Shown here in pieces: positions 14,769 to 51,159 of a DNA stretch of 64,000 nucleotides. The stretch comes from a virus, in the IMG/VR virus record IMGVR_UViG_3300037246_000452, positions 1 through 64,000 of that record; one strand, 5' to 3'. Made by a program: the position numbers and the translations under genes. Numbering within the stretch: position 1 is the stretch's first letter; each line of letters begins with the position of its first letter. Below the pieces are notes generated by a model that did no database searches, was not told where the DNA came from, and saw only the letters and a list, made by a program, of their open reading frames with translations.

Positions 14769-14802
14769 ATTGCCCTCCTTGGCTGTGCAATTAATTTCAA
14801 AT

Positions 14803-14910
14803 TGGTGGAGGGGGTAGGACTCGAACTCTACAATTACCGACATCCTCTCGCTTTCGCTATGTCGTTTGCCCCGAAGGACTTTCAGCGTCTACCAATTCCG
14901 CCACCTCCGC
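14803..14910 (-). ncRNA. tRNA-like RNA with D-arm, T-arm and CCA but no anticodon arm
   Basis: GCGGAATTGGTAGACGC D-arm, GTTCGAGTCC T-loop, CCTCCACCA end; middle has UUCG and GAAA hairpins. Confidence 0.65.
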
Positions 14911-14929
14911 CATACTAAACTGAATAAAA

Positions 14930-14993
14930 TGGTGGGAGAAGGGGGCCGAGAATAGGTACCTCTCACAAGCCTACCCCGAACCCCATTCCACCC
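14930..14993 (-). ncRNA. CCA-terminated rod-like hairpin RNA
   Basis: Long G.U-rich stem with GTGA tetraloop ending CCCACCA followed by TTTT, like the true tRNAs. Confidence 0.5.
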
Positions 14994-14996
14994 AGC

Positions 14997-15482
14997 TTAC
15001 AGATATTTAATAAATGTAAGCATCTCTGTCAAATCAAACTCTTCTACAAATGCTTCCTGCTCAGGAGTTTCAACTGCTTCGGGCACGTATACATTTCTAA
15101 CATGCTCGATCACATCATACTCCGGGTGAATCAAGAAGTGCCCACCGTTCTCATTTGCATAACTGTGAACTGCCAGTCTATGCATAATGGCAAGGATTGT
15201 CCCAGTCCTACCTTGCCCTGCCGTGCAGCCGATGTAAATACGCTTACCATCCTTCATAAGCAATAACATTTGTGCTATTGCTGTGTTAAGGTCATCTTTA
15301 TCCGGCAAACAAAAATCTACAATGGGAAGATGTATCGTAGCATTACAACCTATCGGAACATCTTCAAGTAGACAAACACCGTGCGTTGCCTCGGGCTTTT
15401 TGGTGTATGGCCCTCCGTACATATCACCTTTGATATTACCGTTGTTGAATTTTACATGCCCTCTGCCTATCTTCTTACTCAT
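14997..15482 (-). CDS. CX5R (PTP/dual-specificity-like) phosphatase 2
   Basis: YIGCTAGQGRTG, PIVDFCLP, AVETPEQ. Confidence 0.85.
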   Translation of the reverse strand: MSKKIGRGHVKFNNGNIKGDMYGGPYTKKPEATHGVCLLEDVPIGCNATIHLPIVDFCLPDKDDLNTAIAQMLLLMKDGKRIYIGCTAGQGRTGTILAIMHRLAVHSYANENGGHFLIHPEYDVIEHVRNVYVPEAVETPEQEAFVEEFDLTEMLTFIKYL

Positions 15483-15523
15483 TTCACCCTCCTTGGTTTT
15501 ATGTTTTTGTTTATTATCCGTAT

Positions 15524-15552
15524 ATATTAACAGGTTTATTTTAGTTTGTCAA
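15524..15552 (-). promoter_or_regulatory. sigma70-type promoter
   Basis: TTGACA-N17-TAATAT. Confidence 0.65.
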
Positions 15553-15555
15553 GTT

Positions 15556-15906
15556 TTATTTACAATGGGGGCATCTTATGGATGCGGCTACTTCCCCTTC
15601 ATCATTGCATTGCTTACAGCCGGCTCCATCACAAAAAGTACATATGTCACTTACCTGTATTCTCTTTGTCCCAAAACAATGATTGCATAAATGCCCTAAG
15701 GCTCGTCCCGGTATCTTATGCTTCATGAGCCCTATCGCTACCACCTCCCTATTCTCAATCAGGAATACGAACTCATTGTACCGTCGATTAGCAAAAGTAT
15801 GGGTACATACGGCCGACTCCTTTAACATCTTTTGCAAATGCTTTCCTGTGACCATAGGAAGTAACATTGCTTTATCTTCCATCGCCCTCTCTGTGATCTT
15901 ATACAT
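15556..15906 (-). CDS. hypothetical protein with CxxCxG zinc-finger (DnaJ-like cysteine repeats)
   Basis: CNHCFG, CTFCDGAGCKQC, CPHC. Confidence 0.65.
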   Translation of the reverse strand: MYKITERAMEDKAMLLPMVTGKHLQKMLKESAVCTHTFANRRYNEFVFLIENREVVAIGLMKHKIPGRALGHLCNHCFGTKRIQVSDICTFCDGAGCKQCNDEGEVAASIRCPHCK

Positions 15907-16195
15907 ACTTCTTCTCCTTCATTGATTCTCTCAATATCTTAATACTTCTTGGCGCCTCTATGGCCACCCGGGCAACTTCCATCTTACCCTTAAGCCCACA
16001 GCTTATCATAACATTAGGGAATATTTCAGTTGCTTTCTTATCTGTTATAATCTTGTTCACACAAGGAAACTTCTTACCATAAGTATGAACCTTTACAACG
16101 AACTCCGTCTCTGACCTAATCTCAATAACTTCAAAGTACCCGTTATCAGATACCGCCACTTGCTCTCCCTTTGGTAACCCTAATACTAATGCCAT
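15899..16195 (-). CDS. CsrA/RsmA-like RNA-binding protein with internal insertion
   Basis: N-term MALVLGLPKGEQVAV resembles CsrA MLILTRRVGETLMI; C-term ARVAIEAPRSIKILRE resembles VRIGVNAPKEVSVHRE including the key Arg. Confidence 0.7.
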   Translation of the reverse strand: MALVLGLPKGEQVAVSDNGYFEVIEIRSETEFVVKVHTYGKKFPCVNKIITDKKATEIFPNVMISCGLKGKMEVARVAIEAPRSIKILRESMKEKKYV

Positions 16196-16204
16196 ATCAT
16201 CCTC

Positions 16205-16906
16205 CTAATTCAAAAGTTCATACATTGCTCGTTCCATAGTCACTGGCCTTGGTACTGGCTTGCACTGTTCATTTCCATAGTCTGCTATCATTTCTTGCAG
16301 ATCGTGGAAAGCTTCATCCCCTCCAATTACCTCATCAATAAACTTTTGGCTTACATTCTTATATCCTCCTGCCATCAGACAGGCAACCGTTTTAGCCTCT
16401 CCTGCAGATTGGAAGTACTCCTCAGCCTTTGAGGCCTCCATACGTATCTCAAACAATTCCTTAGGGATGCATAGGACTACCTCCCCATACATCTGAATGA
16501 GGCGTCTGTAGCAATCAAAGGTTGTCCTTGCCCCTATCCTGTTTATCCATTCCTGTACAGTGTCTTGCGTGATACCCACATTCAATATCGTATCCATCAT
16601 ACCCGGCATGCTGACAGGGGCTCCTGATCTAATCGATACAAGCGGCATGTACCCAAAGTAGTCTATAAGAGGATACATCTCATGTATAGCTTTTGTAGTC
16701 AAGTCTGTCAGGTAAGCATTTCTGGATGCACCCTGCAACTCTCTGTATCTATTACACATCTTTGTAGTCAATGTAAAACCGGGAGGGACTGGTAACCCTA
16801 TCCTTGCCATTTCAGCAAGGTTGGCACCCTTACCACCAAGCAGAGCTTTGTTCCCTACTGTTCCGTCTGTATCATTCTTTCCGAATCGGTATATTGCTTC
16901 ATCCAT
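16205..16906 (-). CDS. truncated pyruvate phosphate dikinase N-terminal (ATP-grasp) domain
   Basis: LLGGKGANLAEM..IGLPVPPGFT, PLVSIRSGAPVSMPGMMDTILNVG, DCYRRLIQMYG; similarity appears lost after about aa 160. Confidence 0.85.
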   Translation of the reverse strand: MDEAIYRFGKNDTDGTVGNKALLGGKGANLAEMARIGLPVPPGFTLTTKMCNRYRELQGASRNAYLTDLTTKAIHEMYPLIDYFGYMPLVSIRSGAPVSMPGMMDTILNVGITQDTVQEWINRIGARTTFDCYRRLIQMYGEVVLCIPKELFEIRMEASKAEEYFQSAGEAKTVACLMAGGYKNVSQKFIDEVIGGDEAFHDLQEMIADYGNEQCKPVPRPVTMERAMYELLN

Positions 16907-16948
16907 TGGCGCCCTCCTTGGCTGTGGTATTAATTAATTTATAAGTAA

Positions 16949-16977
16949 ATCTTAACAAATTGAAAAAGGTTTGTCAA
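16949..16977 (-). promoter_or_regulatory. sigma70-type promoter
   Basis: TTGACA-N17-TAAGAT. Confidence 0.7.
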
Positions 16978-16984
16978 GTAAAAA

Positions 16985-17061
16985 TGGCGCCCCTCAACGG
17001 ATTTGAACCGATGACCTCTGCACTGACAATGCATTGCTCTCCCAAACTGAGCTAGAGGGGC
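16985..17061 (-). tRNA. tRNA-Asp(GTC)
   Basis: Cloverleaf GCCCCTC/GAGGGGC, anticodon loop TT-GTC-AG, G73, encoded CCA. Confidence 0.92.
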
Positions 17062-17071
17062 ACTTATAAAA

Positions 17072-17149
17072 TGGTCTGGGGGGGAGGATTTGAACCTCCG
17101 TTTCCTACGTCCAAGGCAGGAGGGTTAAGCCAGACTACCCTACCCCCAG
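17072..17149 (-). tRNA. tRNA-Pro(TGG)
   Basis: Cloverleaf CTGGGGG/CCCCCAG, loop CT-TGG-AC, C1-G72, A73, encoded CCA. Confidence 0.92.
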
Positions 17150-17169
17150 ATAATTTGTATTCTCGTACC

Positions 17170-18363
17170 CTACACCTCTTTACCTTTCTTGTAAACCTTT
17201 TTCTTATTCCTCGCCTTGATTGTCGTTATGGGTGTGAGCTTTATATCTGCACTCACCAAATCAATCTGATTCGCCATTACTTCGTCAATATTCTTATAGG
17301 CGCCCACCGCTTCCCCCATATGATGTTGCTCAAGGTCATCATGAAGTATACCCATTTTCACTAGATATGTGCTCTCTGCTTCTAGGTCAAGTATGTTTGC
17401 GCTCTCAGTCGTTGATCTCTTCCTACCTGCTCCATGGGAACATGATTGGAACGACTTAAGATTACCTTGGCCTTTGCCTATATAACTGGCTGTTCCATAA
17501 GAACCGGGGATAATACACATGTCATTGAACCTTGCTCGTATTGCACCCTTCCTATGCACCCATAAGTTCTGACCTTCATGATTTTCAAGAGCAGCAAAGT
17601 TATGGTGGCAATCTATATCTTGCTCGAACCCTATATCAGGATGAAGCTCTCTTAGTGCCTTTTGCATTTCACGCATTATGAGTCTCCTGTTTAACTTCGC
17701 ATACTTTAGGCAGAAGATCATATCCTTGATATAGTATGCCGCTTCTTCCGTGTCTGTAGGAAGAAATGCAAGATCATGCTTCTCAGGTACTTGGCTTCGC
17801 CAACGTCGATTCAATCTCTTGGCTATCTCGTTGTAATAATCGCAGACCCTCTTACCTAAGTTCCTGCTTCCTGTATGGAGAAGAAACCAGTAGTTGTCTC
17901 CATCCGTACAAAGTTCCATGAAGTGATTACCACTCCCCACTGTTCCTAACTGTAATGCTGCTTTCACCCTCAAGCCCTCTACAAACATAGTGGCCTCCGG
18001 TAACTGTAACCCCTGCACTAACGGTTCATTACGGCTTGCGGTTCCTACCGGCACCCGTAGCTTTACTCGCCTTACCCAATCCCAAATCTCAGCTTTTGTC
18101 AAGTCATGCGACAAGATGATTTTACAGGCTCTAACTCCACAACCTATGTCACTGCCTACTGCGACAGGTGAGATTGCCCCTTGTGCTGCCCAAACCCCAC
18201 CAATAGGCATACCATACCCCGGCTGTAAATCAGCCATTGCAGCAGGGCCACGAAACGTAAAGGGGTGGTTCGCTAGATTTCTTAATTGCTCCAAAGCTCT
18301 CTCTTGATAGTCCTCAGTCCAAAGGAATATAGGTTTAGGTTCGGTGGTTACTACTTGCTTCAT
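17170..18363 (-). CDS. rtcB: RtcB RNA ligase
   Basis: GMPIGG, VGSDIGCG, GSGNHF, HTGSR, CHHN, HRKGA, SHGAGR motifs. Confidence 0.95.
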   Translation of the reverse strand: MKQVVTTEPKPIFLWTEDYQERALEQLRNLANHPFTFRGPAAMADLQPGYGMPIGGVWAAQGAISPVAVGSDIGCGVRACKIILSHDLTKAEIWDWVRRVKLRVPVGTASRNEPLVQGLQLPEATMFVEGLRVKAALQLGTVGSGNHFMELCTDGDNYWFLLHTGSRNLGKRVCDYYNEIAKRLNRRWRSQVPEKHDLAFLPTDTEEAAYYIKDMIFCLKYAKLNRRLIMREMQKALRELHPDIGFEQDIDCHHNFAALENHEGQNLWVHRKGAIRARFNDMCIIPGSYGTASYIGKGQGNLKSFQSCSHGAGRKRSTTESANILDLEAESTYLVKMGILHDDLEQHHMGEAVGAYKNIDEVMANQIDLVSADIKLTPITTIKARNKKKVYKKGKEV

Positions 18364-18372
18364 ACTCCCTCC

Positions 18373-18807
18373 TTAATACTCGTCTGAATGTCTAATTCTA
18401 TGGCAACAAGCATATACTAAATCACACTTATCAGCTTCTCGCCCTAATGCTACTATACTTCTTTCCATCAGCAAACCACTTATCCCAAATAATTTGGCCT
18501 TCGGGTCTCGATGGTGAAAGTCAAATATGCAAGCATTTATTCCGGTATATAATGCTCCACAATCAAGGCAAACACCCCCTTTGTAAACTACTAATTTACC
18601 TTTACGTACTTGTCTTTGAATCCTACGTTTATTGGTTCTGGTAGTTCTGTTCTTATCTGCCCATGCCTTTTTATGCCCCATAGGGGTGCGGTACTTCCTA
18701 CCATTATGCCCTGAAATATACTTCCTATAACGGTAATGGCAATCCTGCTCATATAATTTTTGGCCACAGCCACAGGCGCATTTTATAATTGCACCTTTAC
18801 CATTCAC
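18373..18807 (-). CDS. HNH endonuclease
   Basis: CACGCG N-term; GGVCLDCG, FDFHHRDP, KCDLVYACCH. Confidence 0.75.
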   Translation of the reverse strand: MNGKGAIIKCACGCGQKLYEQDCHYRYRKYISGHNGRKYRTPMGHKKAWADKNRTTRTNKRRIQRQVRKGKLVVYKGGVCLDCGALYTGINACIFDFHHRDPKAKLFGISGLLMERSIVALGREADKCDLVYACCHRIRHSDEY

Positions 18808-19310
18808 TTTCCACCCCTCCCTATGTTGGTTGGTAGTACTGACATCTTCGCCTCTATCTGTTCCTGTGTTTCATCAAAGGCTGTACATCCTAATCCTAGA
18901 AAGTACTCTTGATTTTGATTAATGAAATTAATTGCACTGATCTCAAAGTCTAATGCCTTAAGTCTTAATCCTACAGCTTTGGCCTCCATAGCAATTAGCT
19001 TATTCTGTAGTCGTCTCCTTTCTTTCTCTTCTACCTGCCAGTGTAATGTAGCACTTACCCATAACCCTGTCATAACCAAAGCCATAACTATAAAAAACCA
19101 TGTCCAACCCTCTCCTTCTTTAAGCTTCATGCGTTTGCCCCCCACCCATAATAATGGAAGTGTCCCATCTTAATGGCCTCGAAAGCATCCTGTTCCGTGA
19201 GTTTCGATATGAAGAACTTACCAGATTCAAGCTCATCAGCAATCAATGCTCCTGCCATTTCCCTAGCTGCAATAGCTGTGTGAATATCTTGCAATGCTAC
19301 CAATCTTAGG

Positions 19311-19457
19311 TTACTCAAAATAAGCTCCTTCTTCCATTCTTGAGAGTTCAACTTTATCAACCATCATATCTGGGTCGAAGTCCTCAACCTCTACTCCGGT
19401 TGTTACCTCTGAAATCATTCCCATTACTTCTTTGTCTAACTCTTCTGATATAAACAT
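19311..19457 (-). CDS. unannotated 48-aa highly acidic protein
   Basis: ATG 19457 after GGAGG and promoter; MFISEELDKEVMGMISEVTTGVEVEDFDPDMMVDKVELSRMEEGAYFE. Confidence 0.65.
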   Translation of the reverse strand: MFISEELDKEVMGMISEVTTGVEVEDFDPDMMVDKVELSRMEEGAYFE

Positions 19458-19499
19458 ATTGCCCTCCATGGCGTTTTGTTTTATTTAATTTATAAAGAT

Positions 19500-19528
19500 A
19501 TTTTAACAAATTAAAAAAGTTATGTCAA
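19500..19528 (-). promoter_or_regulatory. sigma70-type promoter
   Basis: TTGACA-N17-TAAAAT. Confidence 0.7.
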
Positions 19529-21147
19529 GTTTATTATTACTTTTCGTACTTTTTATTTATCATACTGGTGAGATACGTTGACAGATGATCGCTCCTATCA
19601 TGGCAATTATATCCTTGCTGCCTTAGGGTATCCGCCACCTTAGGGTAATGCTCAAAGCCCTCCTCCTTAGAGTTGATGGTTTTGAGTGTATCCCTTACAA
19701 TCTTTGGAATCTTAAGTATCACTCATCAAGCCATACTACTGAATCAATACAGGTCATCTTACCCTTAACCTTTGACATCCCCTTTCCGGTAAACTCTATC
19801 TCAATGATACCGTTATACCTATGAGTATGGCATACTGCTTCCTCATCGTTGTACAGGCATTGCTTCCCCACCATACTTACAAAACCTTCTGGTGCTTCTG
19901 CCCCCGGGAGAATGGTTTTAACATCCGCACTTGGTACAACCTCTTTCTTTCGCTTGAGGTTCTGCTTCACCTTGAGCTTAGCCATATCAACCTTACCTTT
20001 AATCCGTGCTGCCGTATCCTTAGGTGCTTCGTCCTTTGGTACGTCCTTATCTTTCTTCTTGAATATAATGCCCATCCGATTCACCCTCCTTGGTTAAAGT
20101 TTATGTCCAGCCCTGTGATTTGAGGAAATTACAAAGCTGCATGGTTTCATCATAAAGCTTATGATCTGAATTCCTATCCCCCAAATGTTTTAGCAGCCAG
20201 TTCGCATTTCTGGTCTTGCCTATAGGAATATCCAACTTTGCAGTTAATTGCACCAGTTTACTTTCCGCTTCCTTCCGTACCATTAGTACCTCCACATTTA
20301 CATTCACAGTTTATAGTATCGTACCCTGCATTCTTTTGTTCATCGAGATAGTCACTTAAGATTTGTAAGTTCCAGACAATCATAAATCCTAGACTCATGA
20401 GCAAGGCCCACGTTACCCCAGCATTAACCTTCTTTTTCATCCTTATCCTCCTTGGCATTACTTGCAGCCTCAGTCCATTCATCTACAGTCTCTTCTGCAA
20501 TTATAACAAGAGGGTGGAAGTTAATGCCATCAAAGTTTTTAAAGATGAGATACTTTATAGCATCTTCCTTGGTGGCTGGCAAGATAAAAGTACATTTCAT
20601 ATGTACCACCATGGTATCACCTGCTGCCACCTCAATCTTGGCCGGCTTAACTGCGTATATCCCTCGTATGATCGTGGTTATAAATTTCAAGTACTGGTCC
20701 TGCGTCATTTCTGCTTCCATTAATCCCCCCACACCATTTTATAAATTTTATAGCAACTGTTACATAAATACACATGATGCCCGTGTACCATAATCTGTGA
20801 TCTATAATACTGCTTGTACGATGTCGTGTTCCCTATCGTTTCGTACCCTTTCTTAGGTTTCCATAGTGCACTAGGTTCCTTGATCGTCACCTCCAGCGTT
20901 GGCTTGTCTGGATAGTTCGTATGGATATGACATAAGCAGTTACTATTGTGGCAAAAGAAATGCTTCGAGTACTTCCCACCCCATTCATTTACATGCCTCA
21001 TACTCGTACAAGCAGGGCAGAATCTATATAGTACTTCTTTCTGTAATTCCTCAATCCATACATGCGTGGTCTTCAATTGTATTAAATGCTTATGCGTCCC
21101 TTTCAGGTTGTGGTATTCACATTCTTTATTATCACACCCCTTATGTT

Positions 21148-22113
21148 TCATGCCCATGTTTCACCTTTATTACTTTCATGATCTCCGGTGTGGCCATGCT
21201 GTTTTATACACTGTTCCTTTGAGCCATCCTTATTTACGATTGCATACTTACATTTATAGGGCATCACCCCTTCCGGTTCTTGGGGCCATACACCTACATC
21301 ATGATCATCAGTGCCCTTACTACAGGCTACATGATCTCCTGAGTGTCCTTTGGGTAATGAACAATAACACGATATCCCAGTGGAGGAGGGAGCGTTACAC
21401 CATTCTGATTTATCATCATCCTTATAAGGTAAACACTTATCCCCGCATTTATGAATACTCTGAGTCCATTGGTGCAGCACCGTCCCTTTATGGTCTACAG
21501 CCATATGGTCTCCTTCATGTTCTACAGGAAGAGTACAGACAAATAGCCCCTTGTCTGCTAAGCATTTACTAATCTTTATAGGAGAAAACTCATTCTTCCA
21601 TGTCCCTAAACAATCCCCATGCATCGTATACTCCTTGTGATGCCCGGTGTGCCCGTAGTGTAAGGTGTAGCTATTCATACCATTCATATGATTACAACTA
21701 TCAGCAGTAGGATTGGTAAAAGCTGAATTAGCAGGTTTCTCATATATACTTATAGGCCACGTAAACTGGTTATCATCAATAGGGTGGTGTCCTGTATGCT
21801 TCCCGCCATGACCTTCTGTAAGATAGCAGATCGTACCATTCATGTGGTTCTCCCCACAGTTAGCAGGGAACTTCTTAAGCTTCTCTTTAGCCTCATTCTC
21901 CAGTGCCCTTGCCAATTCCATCAGCCCTATAGGAGTGAACTGACATTTGATTGACCCGAGTACGTATCCTAAGCCTTCAACTACTCCCGCCCCGTGTTGT
22001 ATCGTCTCAGCCAAATCATTCAGTACACAGGTTAAATGACCTACTTGTTTAACCGTCAGGAGCTTTAGCAAATCATTGTATACCTTATCCAACTCCAAGT
22101 TCGGATGCGTCAT
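21148..22113 (-). CDS. His/Cys-repeat (putative multi zinc-finger) protein
   Basis: Five repeats resembling C-x-L-x3-H-x-G-x-H. Confidence 0.7.
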   Translation of the reverse strand: MTHPNLELDKVYNDLLKLLTVKQVGHLTCVLNDLAETIQHGAGVVEGLGYVLGSIKCQFTPIGLMELARALENEAKEKLKKFPANCGENHMNGTICYLTEGHGGKHTGHHPIDDNQFTWPISIYEKPANSAFTNPTADSCNHMNGMNSYTLHYGHTGHHKEYTMHGDCLGTWKNEFSPIKISKCLADKGLFVCTLPVEHEGDHMAVDHKGTVLHQWTQSIHKCGDKCLPYKDDDKSEWCNAPSSTGISCYCSLPKGHSGDHVACSKGTDDHDVGVWPQEPEGVMPYKCKYAIVNKDGSKEQCIKQHGHTGDHESNKGETWA

Positions 22114-22644
22114 GGCCTTAGCCTTACTGGTGGGGTGTGTATCCTATTAGGATGTTCTTTTACATGTCTATGGTAACTCTCCCAGCGTTCCTTGTTTTTA
22201 GTCCACACTGTCAGTCGTCTTGCATACTTCTCCCACATTGAACGGTGGACTGGTCTGTTCATCCATTTAGAGAAATGGTGCCCATAGCACCTATCCCAAA
22301 ACCATAAGATATATTTCCAGTCGTTTGTTCCTGTCTTTGTTATAACCACTGCTGGCGGTACGCAGCCATGCAGCTTCTTTGCTAACATTCCTTTTATGCT
22401 GATCTTCTCATCTAAGGTTATAAGCCTCATTTGCTGATACCCATTGTCTTGAGTTTATTCTTAGCTCGTTTCACACAATCAAAGCAGATGAATACGTCCC
22501 CGGCTTTACCCTCCTGCCCTTCGACAAGACCCCCGGCTACACGCCCCACCTTTACCTTTTCTAATTCTTCTTTGGTTCTTTCACAAAAGCTACATCCTAC
22601 TTCTGACATCACTGCCCTCCTTGGCCTGTTTTGATTATACCGTT

Positions 22645-22673
22645 ATAATACCAGATGTTTTGTGGTTTGTCAA
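22645..22673 (-). promoter_or_regulatory. sigma70-type promoter
   Basis: TTGACA-N17-TATTAT. Confidence 0.7.
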
Positions 22674-23544
22674 GTTATTAAATCAAGTGCCTTGAAGTAC
22701 TGATCTGTTGCATTCTGGACTATCCGGGCGTGGTCCATTTCCCCCTCGAAAGTTTATCAAGTACTGTCCTCAGTTCATTCCTGATTATCTGTAATTTGCT
22801 GTGCGATTCAACAGTCTTCTCAAATCTCCGAAGTACCCGTATAGCCTTTCTGGCTCCATCATCAAATACTGAGCAGTTATCCATTGAACCTATATCCACT
22901 TGCATTTCAACATCGTCTGGAGTCCTCTCTTTAAGATACACCTCAGCCATCGCCCACTTAAATCCCTCGGCATACTCCCTATCATACCCTGCCGCCTTTC
23001 TTGCCTCTCTCCATTTCTTATCAAATATCATACCCTTCCTCCTTTGCAATTAATTTCAAACAAATACGTATTCTATAGCAGAATGAACTACAAACACACA
23101 AGGTACTCCTCGGTACTTGCTGGAGTAATACCTAACATGGTAGTCATTCTTTATTGTCAGGCCACTATTCTTGTACATAGGAAACAATGTAGCCAGTTCC
23201 TGCGTGTCTATATGGCTTAGGAAAGTTGTGTACTTAATCTCTCTAGCCAACTCTATCATTTCAGAGATATCCTCACCTTTTGCTTGTACACAATTAATCA
23301 GATATGTCTTCATCTTCTTCCTCCGCACCCTCTATTTTAGCTCTGTAGGCCTGATCTGCTTTTTCTTCTTCATCCTCCTGATCAGTAACACAGATTTCAC
23401 CTTCATTATAACCTTCAATAATACAGTGAGCTATGTGCTCTCGGTCACAATCGTCGATTTCAACATTTACGTTTAACTTCCACCAGCCTCTTTCCTTTGC
23501 CATCTTGGCCTCCTTGCCTTTGATGTTTTTTAATTGATATAAAC

Positions 23545-23573
23545 ATTATATTAAATTATAAGCAGTTTGTCAA
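23545..23573 (-). promoter_or_regulatory. consensus sigma70 promoter
   Basis: TTGACA-N17-TATAAT. Confidence 0.85.
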
Positions 23574-24233: not shown

Positions 24234-24273
24234 CCCGAAACGGTAGCATACCCACCCCCTATTATCAACTACT

Positions 24274-26840
24274 TTATAGTAATGACTTAACAAATTCTAC
24301 TGCCCCCTTACCATAGTGAGTCTCCACATACTCTTGCATTGATACCTGCTTCCGGTCATCATAACCCACTCTTTTCAACCATTCTTCAAATTTAAAAATA
24401 TCAAGCTTATATCCCCCGGCTACCGTTGTGGTCGCCCCACACATAAATTGGTGTGCATGCTGATTAAAATGAAACATCATACCCTTATCTACTTCTTTCA
24501 CAGTAGATACTCTTTTAGGTTTTACTATCGTAGCCTCCCTCATAGGGTTGCAGATGCCCTGTTCTTTTATCAGCTTCCCGATCAATTCCTGAAGACCCTG
24601 CTTATGTTTTCTTAGCTTCTCCGTTGCAAGTCCTGTTACTCCCGCCACCGTGCTCCCAAATGCAATGGCGCAGCCGGACCTGTATTCCGATATTGTCCAG
24701 CTATTCCTTGACCCATGCCTGAAGCATAAAATCCCGTCCAACTGGAATGCGTAGCCTTCTACTTCCATCAACTCGTGACTGGGGTTCTGCCTTATATTAA
24801 ACTTTTGCTTTTTCTTGGTTGCCATAGCTTCTCTCTTGTCCTCCTCCGTTTTAACCATTCAGTTATTATAGGATAGTTCTCCACCGTGCCGGCTTGTACA
24901 TTTACTGCCTCATGATATCCTATGCTAAACATATCTACTATGGCTCTTACCTCACATGCCCACGTACTGCAGTCATCTTCATCAGGTGAGTTTACCCACT
25001 CTTCCCATTCAGCCAACGTCCATGACTTACCTTTAAAATAATGGCCTTTACATGCATGACAAAATAAATGGGTCTCCCTCTTATCCCCGAGGGCAAAGGA
25101 GAAATCAGCAATGTGCTGGTAGTCGCAACAATCGAAGCCTATAGCCTGTGCCTTCTTATCTTTACTATTCCCGTTACGTTCAAACCATTTCAGGCAACCG
25201 AAGTCACTCATTACTTCACCTTCAGGTTATGAAGATCAGGCGCCCAATACCACACACCATCAATCTCGATATTCCTGCCCTTGACATCGGTAACTGTTCC
25301 TTCATCCTCAAAGTAGGTTCCCCTCTTAGGGTCTCTTGCACATTCCCAAACAATCGTCTTACCTACCGCCTTACTTAACTTTAACTTCTTACTCATTTTT
25401 GGCCTCCATGCCTTTGTTATTTTACTTTACCAACTCTACAAAAGTTCTGTTATAGCAAGATGCTTCTTTTGCAGCATAGGCTTTTTGCAGGTTACTTATA
25501 AAAGAATTTATCGTTTTGGGCTTTCTGTTTACTTTTGAATTCCAACTCGCCCCTACTTCCAAAGTATAACCGAAGTACTGTATAAGTTCTTCCAATGTTC
25601 CTTTTACTTCTTTTTCTCTCCTGCCGGATACTTGGACTGTATGTACTTTTGATGTTGTCATCTTGGCCTCCTGCCGTTTGTTTTGTTTATTTATTAATTG
25701 TTTATACGTAAGTATACCTTTTTATAAGTGGTTTGTCAAGGATTAATTGCAGTTAATTGCAATTTATTTCTTGTTGGTGTAATAGTCTCCTGTCTTACGG
25801 TTCATCAAGATTGCCTGATGATATTTCTTAATACGCCTTGCTGCATTCTCCAGCATGTGTGATGGAAAGAAGAACTGCTTATGTCCTTTACTATAGTCTG
25901 GGTAGGGTTCCTTAATATCAAGTCTTATATTCCATCTATACCCATACCTCTTCCTCTCGGGATGATCACCTATCCTACACATCCCAATCCTCGGGTCCGT
26001 AAAGCCCATATAACAGCTACTATTGTTCGTCTGTTTATGTACGTATGTTTCTATCCCTAAGTCCCTCAGATGCTCCCTGAGTCGCTTCATGTGTGCTAAT
26101 GGTGTCATGGTGCCTGTAGCTTCCTGATCTCTACTGCAAGGTCATGTAAGAAGTCCCTCTCTGCTTGTACAAACGGGATGCAGCACTCTCCCACCTTATC
26201 ATAAGGGGTTTGCATAACTCCATGCTTATTCTCTTGATGTAGTACCCAATCCTTGTAAGGTGTTCCGCCACACCATTGCCGGCCAGTCTTAATTTTTACA
26301 GGGCAATACTTACAGGAATACTGTCTCTGAGCTCCCCTAGCATAATGTTGTATCGTGAACTGTATACATAGAGGGCAGTTAGCTACTCCATTATCCTCAC
26401 CCTCTCCTTCTAGTATCTTATCCCATTTACCTACGGACTCATCCAGTATCCCCAATACTGCCTGTGATGTATCTATTAGGCTTTCGGGCCTGTACCCTTC
26501 ATTTTCCACACTTACCTCCACATTTGCACTTAGGTTCAATCGATATCGTTATGTCCTTTTCATGGATGTGGAGCCGACAACCTGCATACACTTTATGCTT
26601 GTGCCAGAATTTCCGTGCCCCCAATTCTTTCAACTCTGCCTTGAAGGATTCCTTGGTAGGCCACTCCTTATTTGTGCCTATGTTGGCCTGTTTTATGGCA
26701 TTAATGCATGCTCCTATTGCGGCCATGTGGGATAAGGTCACAACCAGTATATGAGCCATACCACTGTGCTCCCCTGTTTGCAGTACTACAAATGCCTTCT
26801 TATTTTTCATCTTTTCTCCCCTGAGTTTTAAGGTCTTCAA
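24274..26840 (-). other. cluster of accessory hypothetical genes
   Basis: ORFs 24274, 24792, 25211, 25422, 25764, 26105, 26499. Confidence 0.6.
25711..25761 (-). promoter_or_regulatory. sigma70 promoter with 14-bp palindrome just upstream of -35
   Basis: TTGACA(25734-39)-N17-TATACT; TGCAGTTAATTGCA at 25748-25761. Confidence 0.8.
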
Positions 26841-26960
26841 TAACCTCGTTAATCTCTTGCGTCATACTTTGTATCTCTTCTTCTTTCTCTCCCTCGGTGA
26901 GGAAACGATACATCGGACTATCGAAATACCTTCTTATGGTATCCTCCACATTCTTTGGCA

Positions 26961-27305: not shown

Positions 27306-27326
27306 ATTGGCCTCCGGGGCTTTTGC

Positions 27327-27605
27327 TTACTTTCTAAAATGAAGGTCTGCCCAAGAATTACCGGACATGTCTACTTCCTCATTTAGTAATACCATATCAC
27401 TCTCGGGAACACAAACTGAACCGCCCCCTTCACAAAGTATGTTATACCATATTTCTGATTTAGTGGATTCCGGTAATGGTGGCCTCTGCTCCTTAAACCA
27501 TACATCACCTTCGGAGAAACAAGCCTCTTTTTTGAATACTTTGCCTACATGTGAATGCCTCTTTGTTGCTACTGAATCTCCGTGAAAGAATTTTCCGTTG
27601 TCCAT
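27327..27605 (-). CDS. hypothetical protein
   Basis: Start moved to ATG 27605 after GGAGG hairpin and promoter. Confidence 0.6.
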   Translation of the reverse strand: MDNGKFFHGDSVATKRHSHVGKVFKKEACFSEGDVWFKEQRPPLPESTKSEIWYNILCEGGGSVCVPESDMVLLNEEVDMSGNSWADLHFRK

Positions 27606-27656
27606 GTCGCCCTCCGTGGCTTTGTTTATTTGTTTTTGTTGATTGTTTATAATGTA

Positions 27657-27685
27657 ATTATATATGATTGAAAAGGGTTTGTCAA
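27657..27685 (-). promoter_or_regulatory. consensus sigma70 promoter
   Basis: TTGACA-N17-TATAAT. Confidence 0.85.
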
Positions 27686-27699
27686 GTAAATAATGCAAT

Positions 27700-27732
27700 A
27701 AAAAAGCCCCTTCCATTACAGAGGGGGCTTTT
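27700..27732 (-). terminator. intrinsic (possibly bidirectional) terminator
   Basis: AAAAGCCCCCTC-loop-GAAGGGGCTTTTTT on minus strand. Confidence 0.8.
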
Positions 27733-27762
27733 AGTGTTCGTGCAGTTAATTGCAATCGCTAC

Positions 27763-28137
27763 TTAACACCTCGGTACTATTCGGGGGGCGTCTTTGGCGA
27801 TTTGCAATGTCATCTCATCATCTTCTTCGGCTGATAGCTCTTTGGTGGGTTGGTATCGGGTATCATAATGATCTTGTTCCACCGTAAAAGTTACAGCCGC
27901 CATAATCATAACGACTTCATCATCTTCTTCCACTGCTCCTGCTATCCTATACTCGGTGGGGTCTGCTGCCATGATAAACTCATGGCCCCCAATCGGCACA
28001 TCTGCAAGTTCCCCACTTATTGAGAAGCCCGATGCCGGACCTCCCTCTGATGCAATTACTGGACTGCACCATATCAGTAGGGACAGTAGACATAGCATTA
28101 TTGCTAAACCTCCTGCTTTCCAATTTCTATGCTTCAT
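27763..28137 (-). CDS. putative secreted acidic protein
   Basis: Signal peptide MKHRNWKAGGLAIMLCLLSLLIWCSPVIA; acidic mature part. Confidence 0.6.
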   Translation of the reverse strand: MKHRNWKAGGLAIMLCLLSLLIWCSPVIASEGGPASGFSISGELADVPIGGHEFIMAADPTEYRIAGAVEEDDEVVMIMAAVTFTVEQDHYDTRYQPTKELSAEEDDEMTLQIAKDAPRIVPRC

Positions 28138-28163
28138 TCTTTACCTCCTTCTTTGTCTAGGGT

Positions 28164-31100
28164 TTACGAATTGTTTAAATCAAAACTATAGCACCACTCT
28201 CTGAACTCTGTCAAGGCCTTCATTATTTCAGCCTCATCTTCAATCCCTATATGGGGTGGGTACTTATCATTTAGCTTTCTTATATCTTTGTCCCCGAAGT
28301 TCTCACAAATGCCTTTCCTCCGGGCATATGCTTTTAACCGTACCTTGGTTATAGCTATATCATGCTGTGCTTTCTTGATGCTCATACTACCTCCTTTGGT
28401 TGAACTTGTTTTACAAAATGCCATGGAGCACAGTTGGCCTTGCAGCATTTATTGTTTACCCTTCCTTGAGAAGAACAGTTGTAACCTCCTATATTATCAG
28501 CGCCTGAATTGTACCATCCTCTTCTCCAAGGACATTCTTTAGCCATCTTGCTCCATTTACCTTCAGCCATCATTTCACCTTATTTATAGTGGCAATATGT
28601 ATCGTACCCCTATCCTTTGTTTCTATCTCCACGATACTTCTTATCTCGTAATTATCATTGTCAACCCCAAGTAGTATCGTAGCCTTTTCAGCACAGAACG
28701 CTTCTTGGAAGAACTTCTCTACCTCGTCTTTCTTCTTTTCATCTTCTGGTGTCATGAGTCCCCCGGTGTGTCTCGTAGAGTCTGCCTTATCTTTCTAAAG
28801 TATATCTTTGCATCTAGTGTAAGCTCAAGATCACGCAAACCTACATCATCTAGTGCCTTGAGTACTCCTTCCATGTAATGAGCTATTGCCAATATATCAG
28901 GGAGCCTTGCTATCAGCTTTGCATTTGCATCCCTGTTGATCGGATTAATTCCATATTTCGAGGCTTCTGTTGATCTATCCATTTTACAGATCACACCTTC
29001 CCCTTTCTCAGTATCAACTACCACCCTTCCGTCTGAGTATCTCCATGGTCCGGGAGTTTCTCTCCAGATTCTTGGCGGTGGGGGTTTAAACTTCTCACAG
29101 TCTACACCATTAGCCTCAAGGAACTTGATCTGCCTTTCTGTGCCAGCCTCATTGATCTGTTTAGCCATTACACCACAGTGCTCATGTACCAGTTCATCTA
29201 TTTCGTTTTCCTTTTTATCGTTACTCATGATAACACCCCCACTACGTCAAAGTCTTTTGTATATGCCCCACCCCTGTGCATCAGAAGATTATCTGAGTTC
29301 TTTCCGTAATCTTCTGTAATAAGAAGTATTTCGTCCCCTTTATTGTATGTCATAGGTCCGATTGGCCGACCTGTGTCTAAGTGAGTGGGACACAGCATCT
29401 CATATTTAGTATTCTTCCGGTGTACCAATCTTACACCGTTCCTAAGCTTTACTATTTGTCCTTGCATGGCTCCTCCTGCGCTATAGGTTTCTCGTGCCCG
29501 CATATCCAACACTTATCTGACGTAGTGCCTGTGTCAAACTTCTGTCTCTTCTGACAGCCTTGGCAATACTGGACTTTCACTGTCTCGTCGGGGTTAATCA
29601 ATTTATCATAGCCGGTAAGCTCATACACGTCCTGCCATGTTGAGTCACACTCAGTACATTTGATCTCTTGCCATACACATCCGGCATCACTCTGTAAGGC
29701 CCCATCACCCTCGATCTTTTTGCCTCTACAGTTAGGGCATCTGGCTCCGCCATGCTCTATGTACTCCTTATCATTCATCATCTTCCGCCTCTCCTGTTGA
29801 TATGCTTTATTCTGGTTTTCTTAGGTACATGATTTCGGTTCTGTTTCTTAACCTTAGTCGTTGAGGTCTTGCACTTTCTTACAAACTTATCATGCCTTTC
29901 CTCGGCCTCAAACTCCCTCATCATTCTATCGAATCCATTTGAACCGTACATCTAATACTCCTTCGCTGCATTGTATAGCTTATCTAATAGTCGCATCAGC
30001 TCTTGCCTTTTTTCTCTCCCTTCGCTACAGAGGTGAATCCCGTTACAATCTTTCAGCCATGCCCCACAATCACTTTTTCTGATACTCTTTACCACTTCTA
30101 GCAACTGCTCCTTTGCCTCGTCTTCAGGCCTCACAGGGATGTATGTTTTACCGCAATCATCACATTGCTGCTCCTTACCCATCTGCTCCCCATCCCATAC
30201 ATGGCCGGCAGGGCATCCCGGGCACTGTACCATAAATGTTTCACTCCCGAGGGTGCCTACTACTGTCATTGAGGGTCGCCCACATCTGGTGTTATGATAA
30301 TCTTCGGCATTCATACTGCTACCTCCTCAATTAAGTCCTTCATAGTAGTGCCATTAACTGTATGTTCAAAGTCTGATAACCTATTTAACAAACATAGTCT
30401 CTGGCAGTCCTCCTCCTTATCCCCCTTCGATGGCATGTTCTCTGTAATAAGAGTCTGTATCTCTTCGATTCTGTTTTCTAATGAATGGATTAAGTCTGGT
30501 AGTTCCATTATACCAACCCCCTCGCGCCATGCTTTAGTACTTTGGGATTCATGGAGAATTTAAAGTCCCCAAATTCAAGGATGTCAGTGTGCATCAGATG
30601 TTCTACAAGCAACTTCTTTGTCGCCCGGATGTAAGGTCTTGATACCTCCTTACCTTTACTCAGGGTTACCTCAGTTACGGGCTCCTTCATTGTACCAATC
30701 CTCATAAAGATTCCTGTCTTTGGCTTCTTGTTTATCCCACTACTCTGAACCATTAATTCTAACATCTACTTTCTCCCTGTAGTGGTCATCAGTATTGTAC
30801 CGTGACCATCAGTTAATGTTGTGACCACATGGCCGGGATAAATTACGTTTCTATTAGTATGGCGCCTCATATCCTTGGCCAGATTATTGAGATACTTCGT
30901 AAAATTTACTCTCAGCTTATGCATCGCATGCCATCCCTGAATCTGAGCCCCATATTCTGAGGTATTCCTGAGCCAGCTTGTTACCCTCTGTATTCATTTC
31001 CAATTCCTCAATAGGATGTAGAGTACCGTCCGTCCCACCTGACCCTGCGTTGTATGTTGGGTCTTGCCATACTGGCTTGTCTCCATAAGATGACTCTTGC

Positions 31101-31216
31101 ATGACTGAAATACTGTCTATCCAAAACCCCTTCGGCTTGATCGTTACAGCACGTCTGTTCTTACCTACACTCTCCACTACCTGACAATTTCCTACTGTCT
31201 TCTTCGTGATACTCAT
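28164..31216 (-). other. cluster of small accessory hypothetical genes (several zinc-ribbon)
   Basis: ORFs 28164, 28382, 28570, 28752, 29225, 29452, 29952, 30311, 30508, 30917. Confidence 0.6.
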
Positions 31217-31272
31217 TTCGCCCTCCATGGCTTTGGTTGTTGATTTGTTTTATTAATTTTTGATTATACGTA

Positions 31273-31322
31273 ATTATAACTTATTGGTTTTAGTTTGTCA
31301 AGTTTATTTGCAGTTAATTGCA
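31273..31322 (-). promoter_or_regulatory. consensus sigma70 promoter with 14-bp palindrome upstream
   Basis: TTGACA(31296-301)-N17-TATAAT; palindrome 31309-31322. Confidence 0.85.
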
Positions 31323-31726
31323 ATTAATAATCTCTTAATAAGACCTTCCTTCCATAGAGTACATTCGGAGTGGTACTCAGGTATAGGACTACCCTCTAGG
31401 TATCGATCTAGTGGCGTATCATAGTTTGGATAGCCACTGCATACCTCAGGCCTGTCCTTGTGGATGCTACACCCCTCCTTGCTTCTCCTGAGACAAGTAA
31501 AGTACGCTGTTGGCCCAGTAGCCTCTCGGGCTGTCAGTAGGTAAGGATTTAATCTCTGGGCTGTCTCCTCAGGTATCATCACCCAGTTTTCTTGAATGAA
31601 TAACATATCCCCACTTGCACCATTATTCTTATCCATAAACCATCGAGCTTGATGCTCCCCGGTGAGGCGGATTACCTCGCAGCATTTGGTACACCTCTTA
31701 CCTTCTATTATACAATGTTCACTCAT
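31304..31726 (-). CDS. CxxCC zinc/iron-chelating (YkgJ-like) protein
   Basis: CTKCC...C...CSIHKDRPEVCSGYP motif. Confidence 0.75.
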   Translation of the reverse strand: MSEHCIIEGKRCTKCCEVIRLTGEHQARWFMDKNNGASGDMLFIQENWVMIPEETAQRLNPYLLTAREATGPTAYFTCLRRSKEGCSIHKDRPEVCSGYPNYDTPLDRYLEGSPIPEYHSECTLWKEGLIKRLLIAINCK

Positions 31727-33762
31727 CCAAATAATCCTCCCTTTAGTGGGTTCTTATTTGGTGGCTCCTCTCCTTTTTCTTTAGCAATCATATTCTCTAT
31801 CGCCCACTTACTCCGCTCAGCCCGGTTAAGCATAGTGCTCAGTATTCGTATTTGACTTTTCTTCCTCCACCTAAATGCTTCCATGGCCTCAAGCTCCGTA
31901 GGATGAGCAAACCTTTTACGACTCGTGTTAGAAATCCACCGGGGTTTATCATACGCTGACCATAAGTTTCCACGCTTCCTCGGCCCTATCCACCAACCAC
32001 AGGGAGTCTCTCTGTCTCCCTCATAGATTGCTAGATTGATTGTAGTCCCGTGCTCATAATGAGTTTCTACATATCGGTAAAATAGCTTTCCCTCCATTAA
32101 CCCTCGTCCTCCTTCGTCAGTCTCGCCATTGTCAGTGCAGATATAACCTCACATATCTTGCTACGCGCTTTTAGAAGATGACCTCTTGGTCTCAGTTGCT
32201 TCTCCGCTTCTATCCTATCTTCCAAATGCCTTTTGGTAATCTCTGCCTCTGCCAGTATATCTGCATAAGGTATGCTCATGAGCCCTCCTTACGGTATTCT
32301 TCCATAATTTTAATACAACCTTTCAGACTTATTAGAGCACTCAGTTTATGGGGCACATACCTCGCACATGATCGATTCTGATAACAGCCTTTAGCTACAC
32401 AGGCGGGGGCAGGTGTACCTATCTCACATCGGCCTCCACAGGTATAAGCACTTAGGTTAAAGTACTGCTCTCGATAGGGGTCTCTCTGCTTAAGGTTCGG
32501 AATAAAGAGGTGTCTTTCTGGTATCTCTGCTCCAGTAAGTACATCAAATACTTTACCCTCCCGCTTCATCCCAAACTTACTACCTGTTACCTTTGAGATT
32601 ATCCTTAACTTTTCAAGCATCAGTCCTCCTCCTTATCTTCCGTATGTTCTATTACTCCAGCAAGATCGTAATCTCCGTTTTTAATAGCTTTCAAGCCAGT
32701 GGCCTGTACTACATGAGTGATATGAGCATCTATCTCGCCCTTGGCCTCCATCACAGTCTGGTCTACCTGCTTATTAAATTGTTGTTCTACAAATGGGATA
32801 TCTGAGGTTATATGCTGCTTTAACATTTGCACTGATCTGAGTATCTCTTCAAGATCACCCTTGCCGGCCTTACCTTTCTTTAGTTGTTCCTGTATCTTCT
32901 CAATAGTATCATCCGCCTTGCTCCCTATGCCATGCATACTTTTCTTGAATTCATGGGAGAACTCCGCACGTTTACTAATGGTTTCACATCTTTCCATGGC
33001 AATCCCATCAACCCTATCTATAGTACAAGGAACTCCATCCCCGACACCCATATTAGTCATCGCTTCCGCAAATTGTGTGTACGACATAGACACTTCGACA
33101 ATAGGTGGGCCATTACCTCCACTACTTGGCCAGTCCTTATGTAGGTGCCGGTTCATATGCGCTCTTGATATCTTTAGCGTGATGTAGTTACTATGCTTAA
33201 TGGACGACCCGAACATTTCTGCCGGTGGATTACATTGAACTCTGGAGAACCCTACTAACCCATAGGATTCATGTTGGTATTCCAATTCCTCACCCCCACC
33301 ACAAGCCTTCTTCTTTACTATTTTAATTGCCATATTATACTCCTGCTGCTTTAGCTATTGTATTCAGTTCATTGTCTGGTAGAAAAGCCAGTTTTAAAAT
33401 ACAGCCCCACCCTCTAACCATTTTTCCCCGTCCCAGAAATAATTAAACTCCTGTACCTCATGCTCCATAGCTGCCCCAACAGATGGGTAACTTCTTGCTT
33501 TTTGTTCAGTTTCTCCCCGATCTCTTTCGTAGAAAGTGGAATAACCCTTTATCCTGTTATCAAAGTTATGGCCTTCGGGGCATTCAAGACTTTCTCTAAG
33601 GGATGATACATTACCTAAAGCTATGAGTGCCTCGGCCTTTTCCTGAGAATGATAATGTTTTATGAGCGTTACCCCAACTCCATCATGGTATCCATCCCAG
33701 TGATTGTATATTGTTTTTACACCATTCCTTGTCTTTACTGTGATACTTGCTCTTGTTCCCAT
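31723..33762 (-). other. cluster of accessory hypothetical genes
   Basis: ORFs 31723, 32097, 32276, 32620 (237 aa), 33394 (MGTR...YNHWDGY phage-type motif). Confidence 0.6.
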
Positions 33763-33815
33763 GATGGCCTCCTGCCGTTTTGTTTGTTTTTTTTTTTGTT
33801 TTTTGATTATAAGTA

Positions 33816-51125: not shown

Positions 51126-51159
51126 ACTTCAATCCTCCTGACTATTGCAATTAATTTCA

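Follow-up and report, generated by a model that had tools for sequence, protein, structure and literature searches.

A tandem CsrA-like protein and co-varying Shine-Dalgarno hairpins suggest a candidate Csr-type regulon in a clade of 80-100 kb siphophages

Can a phage carry a Csr-type translational regulon of its own? The question is raised by a 64,000-nucleotide stretch of DNA (hereafter, the window) that forms the initial 64 kb of IMG/VR virus record IMGVR_UViG_3300037246_000452, an 89,218 bp virus with direct terminal repeats from a marine sediment metagenome, and whose genes lie nearly all on the minus strand. Two of its elements are at issue, namely a series of short hairpins that hold the Shine-Dalgarno (SD) sequence in their loops, and an open reading frame (ORF 15899-16195) whose product resembles CsrA; a first-pass annotation had linked the two as a candidate CsrA regulon of the phage. 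In known systems, CsrA/RsmE proteins bind with high affinity to ANGGAN hexaloops whose stems do not exceed 4 bp, extra loop nucleotides or stem loss weaken binding, and a protein bound over the SD keeps ribosomes off (PMC7652899). Here, we ask whether the hairpins are a conserved element, whether the protein belongs to the CsrA family, and how probable it is that one acts upon the other.

All 14 hairpin motifs reported by the first-pass annotation, including those at 51131 and 59770, are present at these positions (motif coordinates are window positions, and all motifs are read on the minus, or coding, strand). The principal classes comprise six copies of GCC-ANGGAG-GGC (GCCANGGAGGGC; 14772, 16911, 19461, 22614, 27609, 31220; 0.01 expected), two of GGC-ANGGAG-GCC (GGCANGGAGGCC; 23507, 25401), two of GGC-AGGAG-GCC (GGCAGGAGGCC; 25665, 33766) and two of ACC-AAGGAG-GGT (ACCAAGGAGGGT; 15486, 20083), with no more than 0.03 copies of each of the four classes expected from dinucleotide shuffles. 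A start codon lies 4-10 nucleotides downstream of each motif and the loop is the SD itself, read as AAGGAG, ATGGAG or ACGGAG on stems of 3-5 bp or, at some sites, as an AGGAG pentaloop. Stems within the genome include GCC/GGC, GGC/GCC, ACC/GGT, GTC/GAC, ATTC/GAAT, TTGG/CCAA and others (five or more in all). In the recurring layout, a near-consensus CTTGACAAAC-N17-TATAAT promoter is followed by a 30-45 nucleotide, A-rich and almost G-free leader, the hairpin, and, 4-7 nucleotides on, the start codon; leaders are A/C/U-rich and G-poor and contain a single GGA, not the two or more of bridged CsrA targets. With their ANGGAN hexaloops, short stems and SD overlap, the hairpins have the features of the high-affinity CsrA/RsmE site, as the first-pass annotation had recognized (PMC7652899).

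The association of stems with SD sequences is well beyond what chance complementarity supplies. Among all A(N)GGAG sequences with an ORF start 3-11 nucleotides downstream in the whole 89-kb genome, flanking Watson-Crick stems of at least 3 bp were found at 21 of 202 SD sites, against 3.9 ± 1.9 when the 3' flanks were permuted among sites (p ~2e-4); under a stricter ORF filter, 19 of 188 SD sites had at least 3 complementary pairs against ~3.8 ± 1.9 permuted, and where no start codon follows A(N)GGAG (279 sites), just 3 sites had stems of at least 3 bp. The excess over a shuffled control that had been predicted is thus observed. The claim that hairpins mark mostly promoter-proximal genes also holds, in that a sigma70-like site (TTGACA-N16-18-TATAAT-like, at most 120 nucleotides upstream) precedes 9 of 17 hairpin genes as against 8 of 105 others (Fisher p = 2.8e-5, odds ratio 13.6), in a test whose rough gene list omitted two promoter-proximal hairpin genes, at 22612 and 27605. 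When folded with RNAfold, all nine leaders examined adopt the 3-bp hairpin as their minimum free energy or centroid structure (-3.4 to -7.3 kcal/mol). Several of the folded leaders (15472-15528, 19447-19496, 22602-22641 and 23493-23541, all minus strand) additionally form an outer helix in which an upstream CAU(C) or AUCA pairs with the (G)AUG or UGAU of the start codon; this helix may be a chance product of A/C-rich leaders, or a second layer occluding the start codon.

Because leaders are partly paralogous within this genome, several of them clearly so (a shared CTTGACAAAC promoter, A-rich leader and identical 12-mers), relatives were examined. A megablast search of 20 kb of the window against a phage collection gave no match, i.e. 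no close nucleotide relative; the large terminase shares ~53% identity with its counterparts in three Stenotrophomonas phages (DLP5, DLP3 and Summit) and in a set of Vibrio siphophages of 80 kb. The clade consists of 80-100 kb siphophages and includes Rhodobacter phage RcZahn, Rhizobium phage RHph_TM16, the three Stenotrophomonas phages, Vibrio phage J26 and several IMG/VR contigs. RcZahn, whose base composition (61% GC) differs greatly from that of this phage, has 28 hairpin sites against 3.8 ± 1.8 expected; their loops are AAGGAG or ATGGAG, enclosed by 24 distinct stems of 3-5 bp. Among IMG/VR contigs of the clade, six together have 17 hairpins against 2.1 expected; a 16-kb stretch of RHph_TM16 has hairpins at 2 of 8 sites. 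There is no such excess in 23 unrelated IMG/VR phage loci (5 vs 3.1), in Bacillus phage SPP1 (0 vs 0.7) or in loci encoding a canonical phage CsrA, and within RcZahn the SDs of the portal and capsid genes have no hairpin.

Further evidence for the element comes from covariation. An alignment (A3) was built from the SD regions of three orthologous genes, encoding the PPDK-like kinase, the PTP phosphatases and a protein of family phrog_20946 (gene Y), in 10 phages, and every site holding ANGGAG was kept (n=29), the selection resting on orthology and not on pairing. The hexaloop stem gave a covariation of 0.533 against 0.179 ± 0.042 in shuffled alignments, a value that 0 of 500 shuffles reached, and sliding the partner columns as a control yielded only 0.06-0.124; cells with double changes numbered 32 against 14.9 ± 3.1. 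Four types of closing pair are represented (CG 12, AU 10, GC 3, UA 1), and the next pair is CG 22, GC 3, UA 1 and UG 1. At the SD of gene Y, six phages have six different stems (GCC/GGC in this phage, AACC/GGTT, TCC/GGA, ACC/GGT, TTTCG/CGAAA and GCA/TGC), with CTTTCA/TGAAAG in the pentaloop register, and the SD hairpin of the PPDK orthologue recurs in RcZahn and in contigs L025 and L018. The earlier observation that stems change while pairing is kept therefore extends from one genome to 10 phages. Conservation and covariation mark the SD element as a clade-specific hairpin that presents A-N-G-G-A-G. No residue of the CsrA-like protein was seen to track the closing base pair across the 10 phages, which are too few sequences for such a pattern.

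Two members of the clade depart from this form. DLP5 has a fixed CCAATGGAGTGA before many genes, equivalent to a 2-bp CA/TG stem (26 vs 10.5 at stems of at least 2 bp), and J26 lacks ANGGAG hairpins and instead has GC-UAAGGA-GC or GA-UAAGGA-UC, a register-shifted loop on 2 bp. Each relative thus has a stereotyped initiation motif on many of its genes, CCAATGGAGTGA in DLP5 (L007/L008) and GCUAAGGAGCA plus GAUAAGGAUC in J26 (L009/L010), and the motifs of both phages consist of palindromic flanks around a GGA-containing hexaloop.

The relationship of ORF 15899-16195 to CsrA is evident at the level of the family. Pfam CsrA (PF02599) scores the ORF at 23.2 bits, below its cut-off of 27 (E 6.8e-5, residues 69-95 only), the NCBIfam CsrA model at 19 bits against a cut-off of 70, no PHROG match was found, and phmmer with the single protein against the PDB gave nothing meaningful. 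An exhaustive HMMER search, however, assembled a family of 121 cluster representatives of ~90-105 residues with the consensus MALVL...G..F.V.D....V..I...[insert]...ITD....EI.P.V.VS.G.......AR..IEAPR.I.ILR, in which Pfam CsrA matches 65 of 83 members at E<=0.01 (best 2.5e-10). Searched against the PDB, the family profile matched every CsrA, RsmA, RsmE and RsmN entry at E ~1e-4 in two stretches, positions 1-28 falling on CsrA 1-29 and positions 65-92 on CsrA 26-53. Residues L3, L5 and R89 align with CsrA L2, L4 and R44, of which L4 and R44 are reported to be the most critical for RNA binding (PMC7652899); all three are invariant or almost so across the family, L3 strictly, and M1 and I87, like R89, vary little. 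Judging from these profile comparisons, the ORF is a true, divergent member of the CsrA family, for which homology is supported and equivalog membership is not. The CsrA-like character assigned earlier to its N- and C-termini, including the conserved arginine, is upheld.

What separates the two segments had been described as an insert, and ~37 residues do lie between them. This stretch is not a spacer, however, and appears instead to be the remnant of a second CsrA copy. A comparison profile was prepared from 10 canonical single-copy phage CsrAs, taken from IMG/VR loci that were found with a degenerate IEAPRxIxIxR DNA pattern, and the family as a whole aligns to it by hhalign with Prob 98.6 and E 7e-16. 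The N-half (residues 1-42) aligns to canonical CsrA 1-38 (Prob 96.8, E 2e-10), and the C-half (residues 43-98) aligns independently to canonical CsrA 8-54 (Prob 97.2, E 3e-11). We infer, solely because each half separately matches CsrA, that a partial duplication in tandem gave rise to the protein, with β1-β4 supplied by the first copy and β2-β5 plus the helix by the second. Short CsrAs with the GIEAPRxIxIxR signature are encoded by ~19 unrelated viral contigs (L012-L039, IMG/VR), one of which, in L034, begins with MALTL like the tandem family, and the duplicated sequence may have come from this subfamily.

Structure prediction agrees with a rearranged CsrA fold. An AlphaFold2 monomer computed from the family alignment (predicted local distance difference test 91.7, predicted template modelling score 0.81) is self-contained, with nine strands and a C-terminal helix. 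In VIA alignments, residues 43-98 fit the whole of RsmA chain 1vpz (55 residues, 2.4 Å, Z 4.1), and residues 1-93 fit RsmN/RsmF chains of 4kji (51 residues, 2.2 Å, 33% identity, Z 4.4-4.8). Foldseek of the model against the PDB gave no match at E<=0.001, and the top VIA matches, at Z 7-9, were to CcsBA and to domains of class II fusion proteins, generic β-sandwiches that were not accepted as relatives. A CsrA-like fold is predicted from the model and these superpositions, although the protein is not the canonical ~60-residue, five-strand protomer with two identical surfaces, having 98 residues and lacking the β5 and helix of its first copy. In CsrA dimers, each RNA surface is composed of β1 from one subunit and β5 from the other (PMC7652899), and on this basis a single chain mimicking the dimer is inferred; with the first copy's β5 and helix absent, at most one canonical surface is left. 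The protein is therefore probably, on the predicted model, a single-chain pseudo-dimer with one RNA-binding surface, which would be formed by β1 of the first copy (MALVL) and β5 and the helix of the second (IxILR, whose R corresponds to CsrA R44).

Comparison with characterized relatives sharpens these likenesses and differences. Like CsrA, RsmA and RsmE, the phage protein has homologous β1-β3 and β4-β5-helix segments and conserved equivalents of L2, L4 and R44, and its candidate target likewise overlaps the SD and consists of a short stem capped by a GGA hexaloop. It differs from them in its length (~95 residues vs ~60), in its predicted single-chain form with one RNA surface rather than two, and in its scores, which for this member reach neither the Pfam nor the NCBIfam cut-off; the phage leaders also offer a single site each, so no dual-site bridging, the candidate targets are the phage's own genes, and neither a sponge small RNA nor a FliW-like antagonist has been identified for the phage. 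RsmN/RsmF of Pseudomonas aeruginosa (PDB 4kji, 4k59) is the best structural match among CsrA-family chains and, being topologically rearranged, offers a precedent for tolerance of rearrangement by the CsrA fold. Yet RsmN has its additional helix between β2 and β3 and remains a two-site homodimer, whereas in the phage model four extra strands replace the partner subunit. CsrA homologs borne by phages and plasmids are known from surveys (PMC8450108; PMC7366521), and ORF99 of J26 (vB_VneS_J26) is already annotated 'CsrA' (PMC12038007). J26 ORF99 belongs to the same PPDK/PTP module as the protein described here, and the canonical phage CsrAs, also phage-encoded, share with it, in their short GIEAPRxIxIxR forms, the C-terminal signature and sometimes a MAL(T/V)L start; the canonical phage and plasmid forms, however, are single-copy proteins of 55-75 residues with proposed host targets such as CRISPR-Cas.

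The CsrA-like gene is found in all clade members examined, always inside the same module, in which the order of a PPDK-like kinase gene, the CsrA-like gene, a small ORF (ORF X), a DSP-PTP phosphatase gene, gene Y and often a second PTP gene is conserved. The module is present in RcZahn (gp6-gp11, the CsrA-like gene being gp7), RHph_TM16 (CsrA-like gene EVB27_132), DLP5, J26 and six IMG/VR contigs of 92-100 kb. It is situated between the terminase gene and the DNA polymerase and portal genes, and the ~15 kb from the terminase to the module are filled with small promoter-driven genes that bear most of the hairpins. SD hairpins also mark the module's first gene and its PTP and Y genes in most clade members. 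The CsrA-like gene has no SD hairpin of its own and starts 9 nucleotides past the kinase stop codon; it is, as had been noted, the second cistron of an operon whose first gene carries the hairpin at 16911. Gene and hairpins co-occur in related phages within one clade, the hairpins in weaker or shifted form in DLP5 and J26.

How might protein and hairpins be connected? In the scheme that we favor, the SD is displayed as an A-N-G-G-A-G hexaloop (or AGGAG pentaloop) on the first cistrons of many sigma70-driven early or accessory units and on genes of the PPDK/PTP module, with stems whose sequence drifts while complementarity is kept. The CsrA-like protein would bind the single GGA hexaloop of each leader and stabilize its short stem, the bound protein would exclude the 30S subunit and thereby repress translation of the first cistron, and downstream genes could be affected through coupling or mRNA decay, such that the protein would act on a class of phage mRNAs in the manner of T4 RegA. 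That the protein binds the SD hairpins as a translational repressor is, on sequence evidence, plausible, though it falls short of being probable. The broader proposal, that a monovalent CsrA fusion serves across the clade as a host-independent global regulator of the translation of the phage's own early genes through one SD hairpin per operon, is put forward tentatively. One GGA site per leader fits a protein with one surface, and since the operon of the CsrA-like gene itself begins with a hairpin, its expression would be self-limiting. In J26, loss of the APR/R signature from the protein goes with an absence of ANGGAG hairpins, which is counted in favor of the link between protein and hairpin.

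Several observations weigh against this scheme. On the RNA side, a 3-bp stem is thermodynamically marginal, and among phages that have the gene, DLP5 has no excess of stems of at least 3 bp, DLP5 and J26 together offering only weaker (2-bp) or shifted versions of the hairpin. On the protein side, this member has no basic residues where CsrA has R6/R7, nor does the family conserve them there, direct hhalign comparison of the N-half with the C-half finds no similarity (E 0.4-0.8), and the one-surface architecture leans on the AlphaFold model and on moderate Z-scores of 4.1-4.8. Moreover, the co-occurrence of gene and hairpins comes from a single clade and so constitutes one evolutionary observation, in which some other clade-specific partner could be the hairpin's ligand, and the CsrA-like gene is so strictly syntenic with genes for a PPDK-like kinase and two phosphatases that the role of its product may lie inside the module.

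In one alternative, no protein acts at the hairpin: the short stem would keep the SD exposed in a loop and shielded from long-range pairing, a benefit that matters most for the 5'-proximal cistron, where there are no upstream ribosomes to unfold the mRNA, and the CsrA-like protein would act elsewhere, on host mRNAs or the PPDK/PTP module. Such a device, which we regard as unlikely, would account for the concentration of hairpins on first cistrons, for stems weak enough to be opened by the anti-SD, for a CsrA-like gene that is syntenic with kinase and phosphatase genes and not with hairpin genes, and for DLP5, which has the gene yet 2-bp stems only. It leaves unexplained, however, why the element is restricted to one clade (SPP1 and the 23 unrelated phage loci have no excess), why the A-N-GGA-G loop is so strict, and why a CsrA-like protein, a predicted loop-specific RNA binder, is co-conserved; the absence of hairpins from highly expressed late genes, as seen for the structural genes of RcZahn, also argues against a simple high-expression device. 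A more deflationary account, in which the hairpins have no functional structure and stem from duplication of one promoter-leader cassette, or from strong SDs whose flanks are complementary by chance, can point to the clear paralogy of several leaders described above. Five or more different complementary stems in this genome and 24 in RcZahn, covariation of orthologous sites across 10 phages, and the failure of permutation and slid controls to reproduce the signal already contradict it, and we assign it almost no probability.

Other alternatives retain the hairpin as a binding site and change what binds or what follows. The CsrA-like protein might act positively, protecting leaders from RNases or aiding ribosome loading, a proposal that shares all the structural and co-occurrence evidence of the repressor scheme, for which the RtcB and tRNA genes beside the module hint at a setting of RNA damage and repair, and for which activating modes of CsrA are known, e.g. 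at flhDC, ymdA and moaA (PMC7652899). It is nonetheless improbable, in that the loop is the SD, whose occupancy should exclude the 30S subunit, whereas known activating sites lie away from the SD. Host CsrA or Rsm proteins might instead be the ligands, coupling early phage expression to host physiology or being titrated by the phage, and the loops do fit the canonical CsrA consensus. CsrA/RsmA proteins are known in the bacterial groups from which the Vibrio and Stenotrophomonas hosts come. Yet the strongest hairpin set belongs to a phage of Rhodobacter and a Rhizobium phage has hairpins too, Pfam CsrA is found in just 62 of the 301 genomes sampled from the alphaproteobacterial class, and Sinorhizobium meliloti is reported to lack a chromosomal csrA (PMC7366521); in addition, the CsrA dimer binds single sites less effectively (PMC7652899). 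These points leave a host ligand with little probability. Nor do the data lend any support to a rewiring of host CsrA targets, which the first-pass annotation had raised as a possibility. A comparably slight chance, a shade lower still, attaches by analogy to an endoribonuclease for which the hairpins would be cleavage sites that inactivate early mRNAs, the CsrA-like protein being unrelated or a specificity or protective cofactor. The model here is T4 RegB, which cuts GGAG in early SDs. The invariant, loop-exposed GGAG on early-class genes would suit such an enzyme, but no RegB-like or other nuclease candidate turned up among the few proteins scanned.

The T4 proteins also offer the nearest functional comparison for the repressor scheme. 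T4 RegA is a translational repressor of early mRNAs whose sites are AU-rich and unstructured. The system envisaged here would resemble RegA and RegB as a phage factor directed to the initiation regions of an early message class, RegB sharing GGAG in the SD as its key element; the CsrA-like protein, however, has no sequence or fold relationship to either. Phage-borne CsrAs have so far come from sequence surveys and have been assumed to act on host targets, and the literature searched is silent on the tandem single-chain form, on the module in which it is conserved, and on any regulon of SD hairpins inside a phage. If the scheme is correct, it would describe a self-contained phage 'Csr regulon', analogous to that of T4 RegA and spread across alphaproteobacterial, gammaproteobacterial and marine-sediment hosts, with a candidate target set that can be counted and is supported by covariation across culturable phages (RcZahn, RHph_TM16, DLP5, J26). 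It opens questions about the timing of early-gene translation outside the T4 paradigm, about repression by a monovalent CsrA through one hairpin, and about remodelling of the CsrA fold by duplication and fusion, and the pair of hairpin and protein could serve as an orthogonal translational switch.

Table 1. Positions in the window of the hairpins and of the genes at the core of the module
Feature	Positions	Strand	Remarks
SD hairpin GTC-AAGGAG-GAC	12559..12570	-	gene 11668-12555
SD hairpin GCC-AAGGAG-GGC	14772..14783	-	gene Y (phrog_20946; GTG 14768)
SD hairpin ACC-AAGGAG-GGT	15486..15497	-	DSP-PTP phosphatase gene 14997-15482; sigma70-like promoter 41 nucleotides upstream
ORF X, 116 residues	15556..15906	-	directly downstream of the CsrA-like gene, overlapping it; tblastn homologs in L011, L018, L025, RcZahn, DLP5
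Tandem CsrA-like protein P0001 (candidate), 98 residues	15899..16195	-	N-half matches CsrA β1-β4; C-half matches CsrA β2-β5 plus helix
Truncated PPDK N-terminal (ATP-grasp) kinase-like gene, 233 residues	16205..16906	-	Pfam PPDK_N 1.9e-15; phrog_18609; first gene of the module
SD hairpin GCC-AAGGAG-GGC	16911..16922	-	PPDK_N-like kinase gene (ATG 16906), first cistron of operon
SD hairpin GCC-ATGGAG-GGC	19461..19472	-	first gene after promoter ~19500-19528
SD hairpin ACC-AAGGAG-GGT	20083..20094	-	internal gene (ATG 20075)
SD hairpin GCC-AAGGAG-GGC	22614..22625	-	first gene after promoter ~22645-22673
SD hairpin GGC-AAGGAG-GCC (middle pair swapped)	23507..23518	-	first gene after promoter ~23545-23573
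SD hairpin GGC-ATGGAG-GCC	25401..25412	-	second gene of operon
SD hairpin GGC-AGGAG-GCC (pentaloop)	25665..25675	-	first gene after promoter ~25711-25739
SD hairpin GCC-ACGGAG-GGC	27609..27620	-	first gene after promoter ~27657-27685
SD hairpin GCC-ATGGAG-GGC	31220..31231	-	first gene after promoter ~31273-31301
SD hairpin GGC-AGGAG-GCC	33766..33776	-	first gene after promoter ~33816-33844
SD hairpin TTGG-AGGAG-CCAA	36208..36220	-	precedes large terminase gene
SD hairpin AGTC-AGGAG-GATT (one G-U pair)	51131..51143	-	precedes recA-like gene
SD hairpin ATTC-AGGAG-GAAT	59770..59782	-	gene 59192-59767

Further features of the neighborhood deserve mention (Table 1). The kinase, truncated in this phage, is full length (~650-735 residues) in relatives, where a second PTP follows, and ORF X has no family match in Pfam or PHROG searches. 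An RtcB gene and two tRNA genes lie directly upstream of the module, such that the region 12997-18363 of the minus strand holds genes for RtcB ligase, tRNA-Pro, tRNA-Asp, the truncated PPDK kinase, the CsrA-like protein, ORF X, DSP-PTP and the phrog_20946 protein together with a further ORF, a conserved neighborhood with a flavor of phosphotransfer and RNA repair. The PTP gene and gene Y are separated by 228 nucleotides, which contain a tRNA-like stretch (14803-14905, minus strand) with a class-II-like D arm, a T arm, the 3' strand of an acceptor stem and an encoded CCA around a long, irregular middle; its position places the start of gene Y at GTG 14768 and not at ATG 14843. This stretch was not called by ARAGORN or Rfam, the Rfam scan of the window returning two tRNAs only, with nothing at ~14800-14905 or at the SD hairpins.

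Finally, a 14-bp near-palindrome, TGCAATTAATTGCA in this phage and TGCAATCAATTGCA in RcZahn and DLP5, is conserved in the clade and occurs window-wide, directly upstream of many SDs or beside -35 boxes. Examples are found at ~14787-14800 and ~51145-51160, others precede the -35 boxes at ~33850 and ~25745, and among relatives it occurs in loci of RcZahn (L005/L006), DLP5 (L007/L008) and J26 (L009) and in L018. The near-palindrome could be a phage-specific promoter, middle or late, or an operator.

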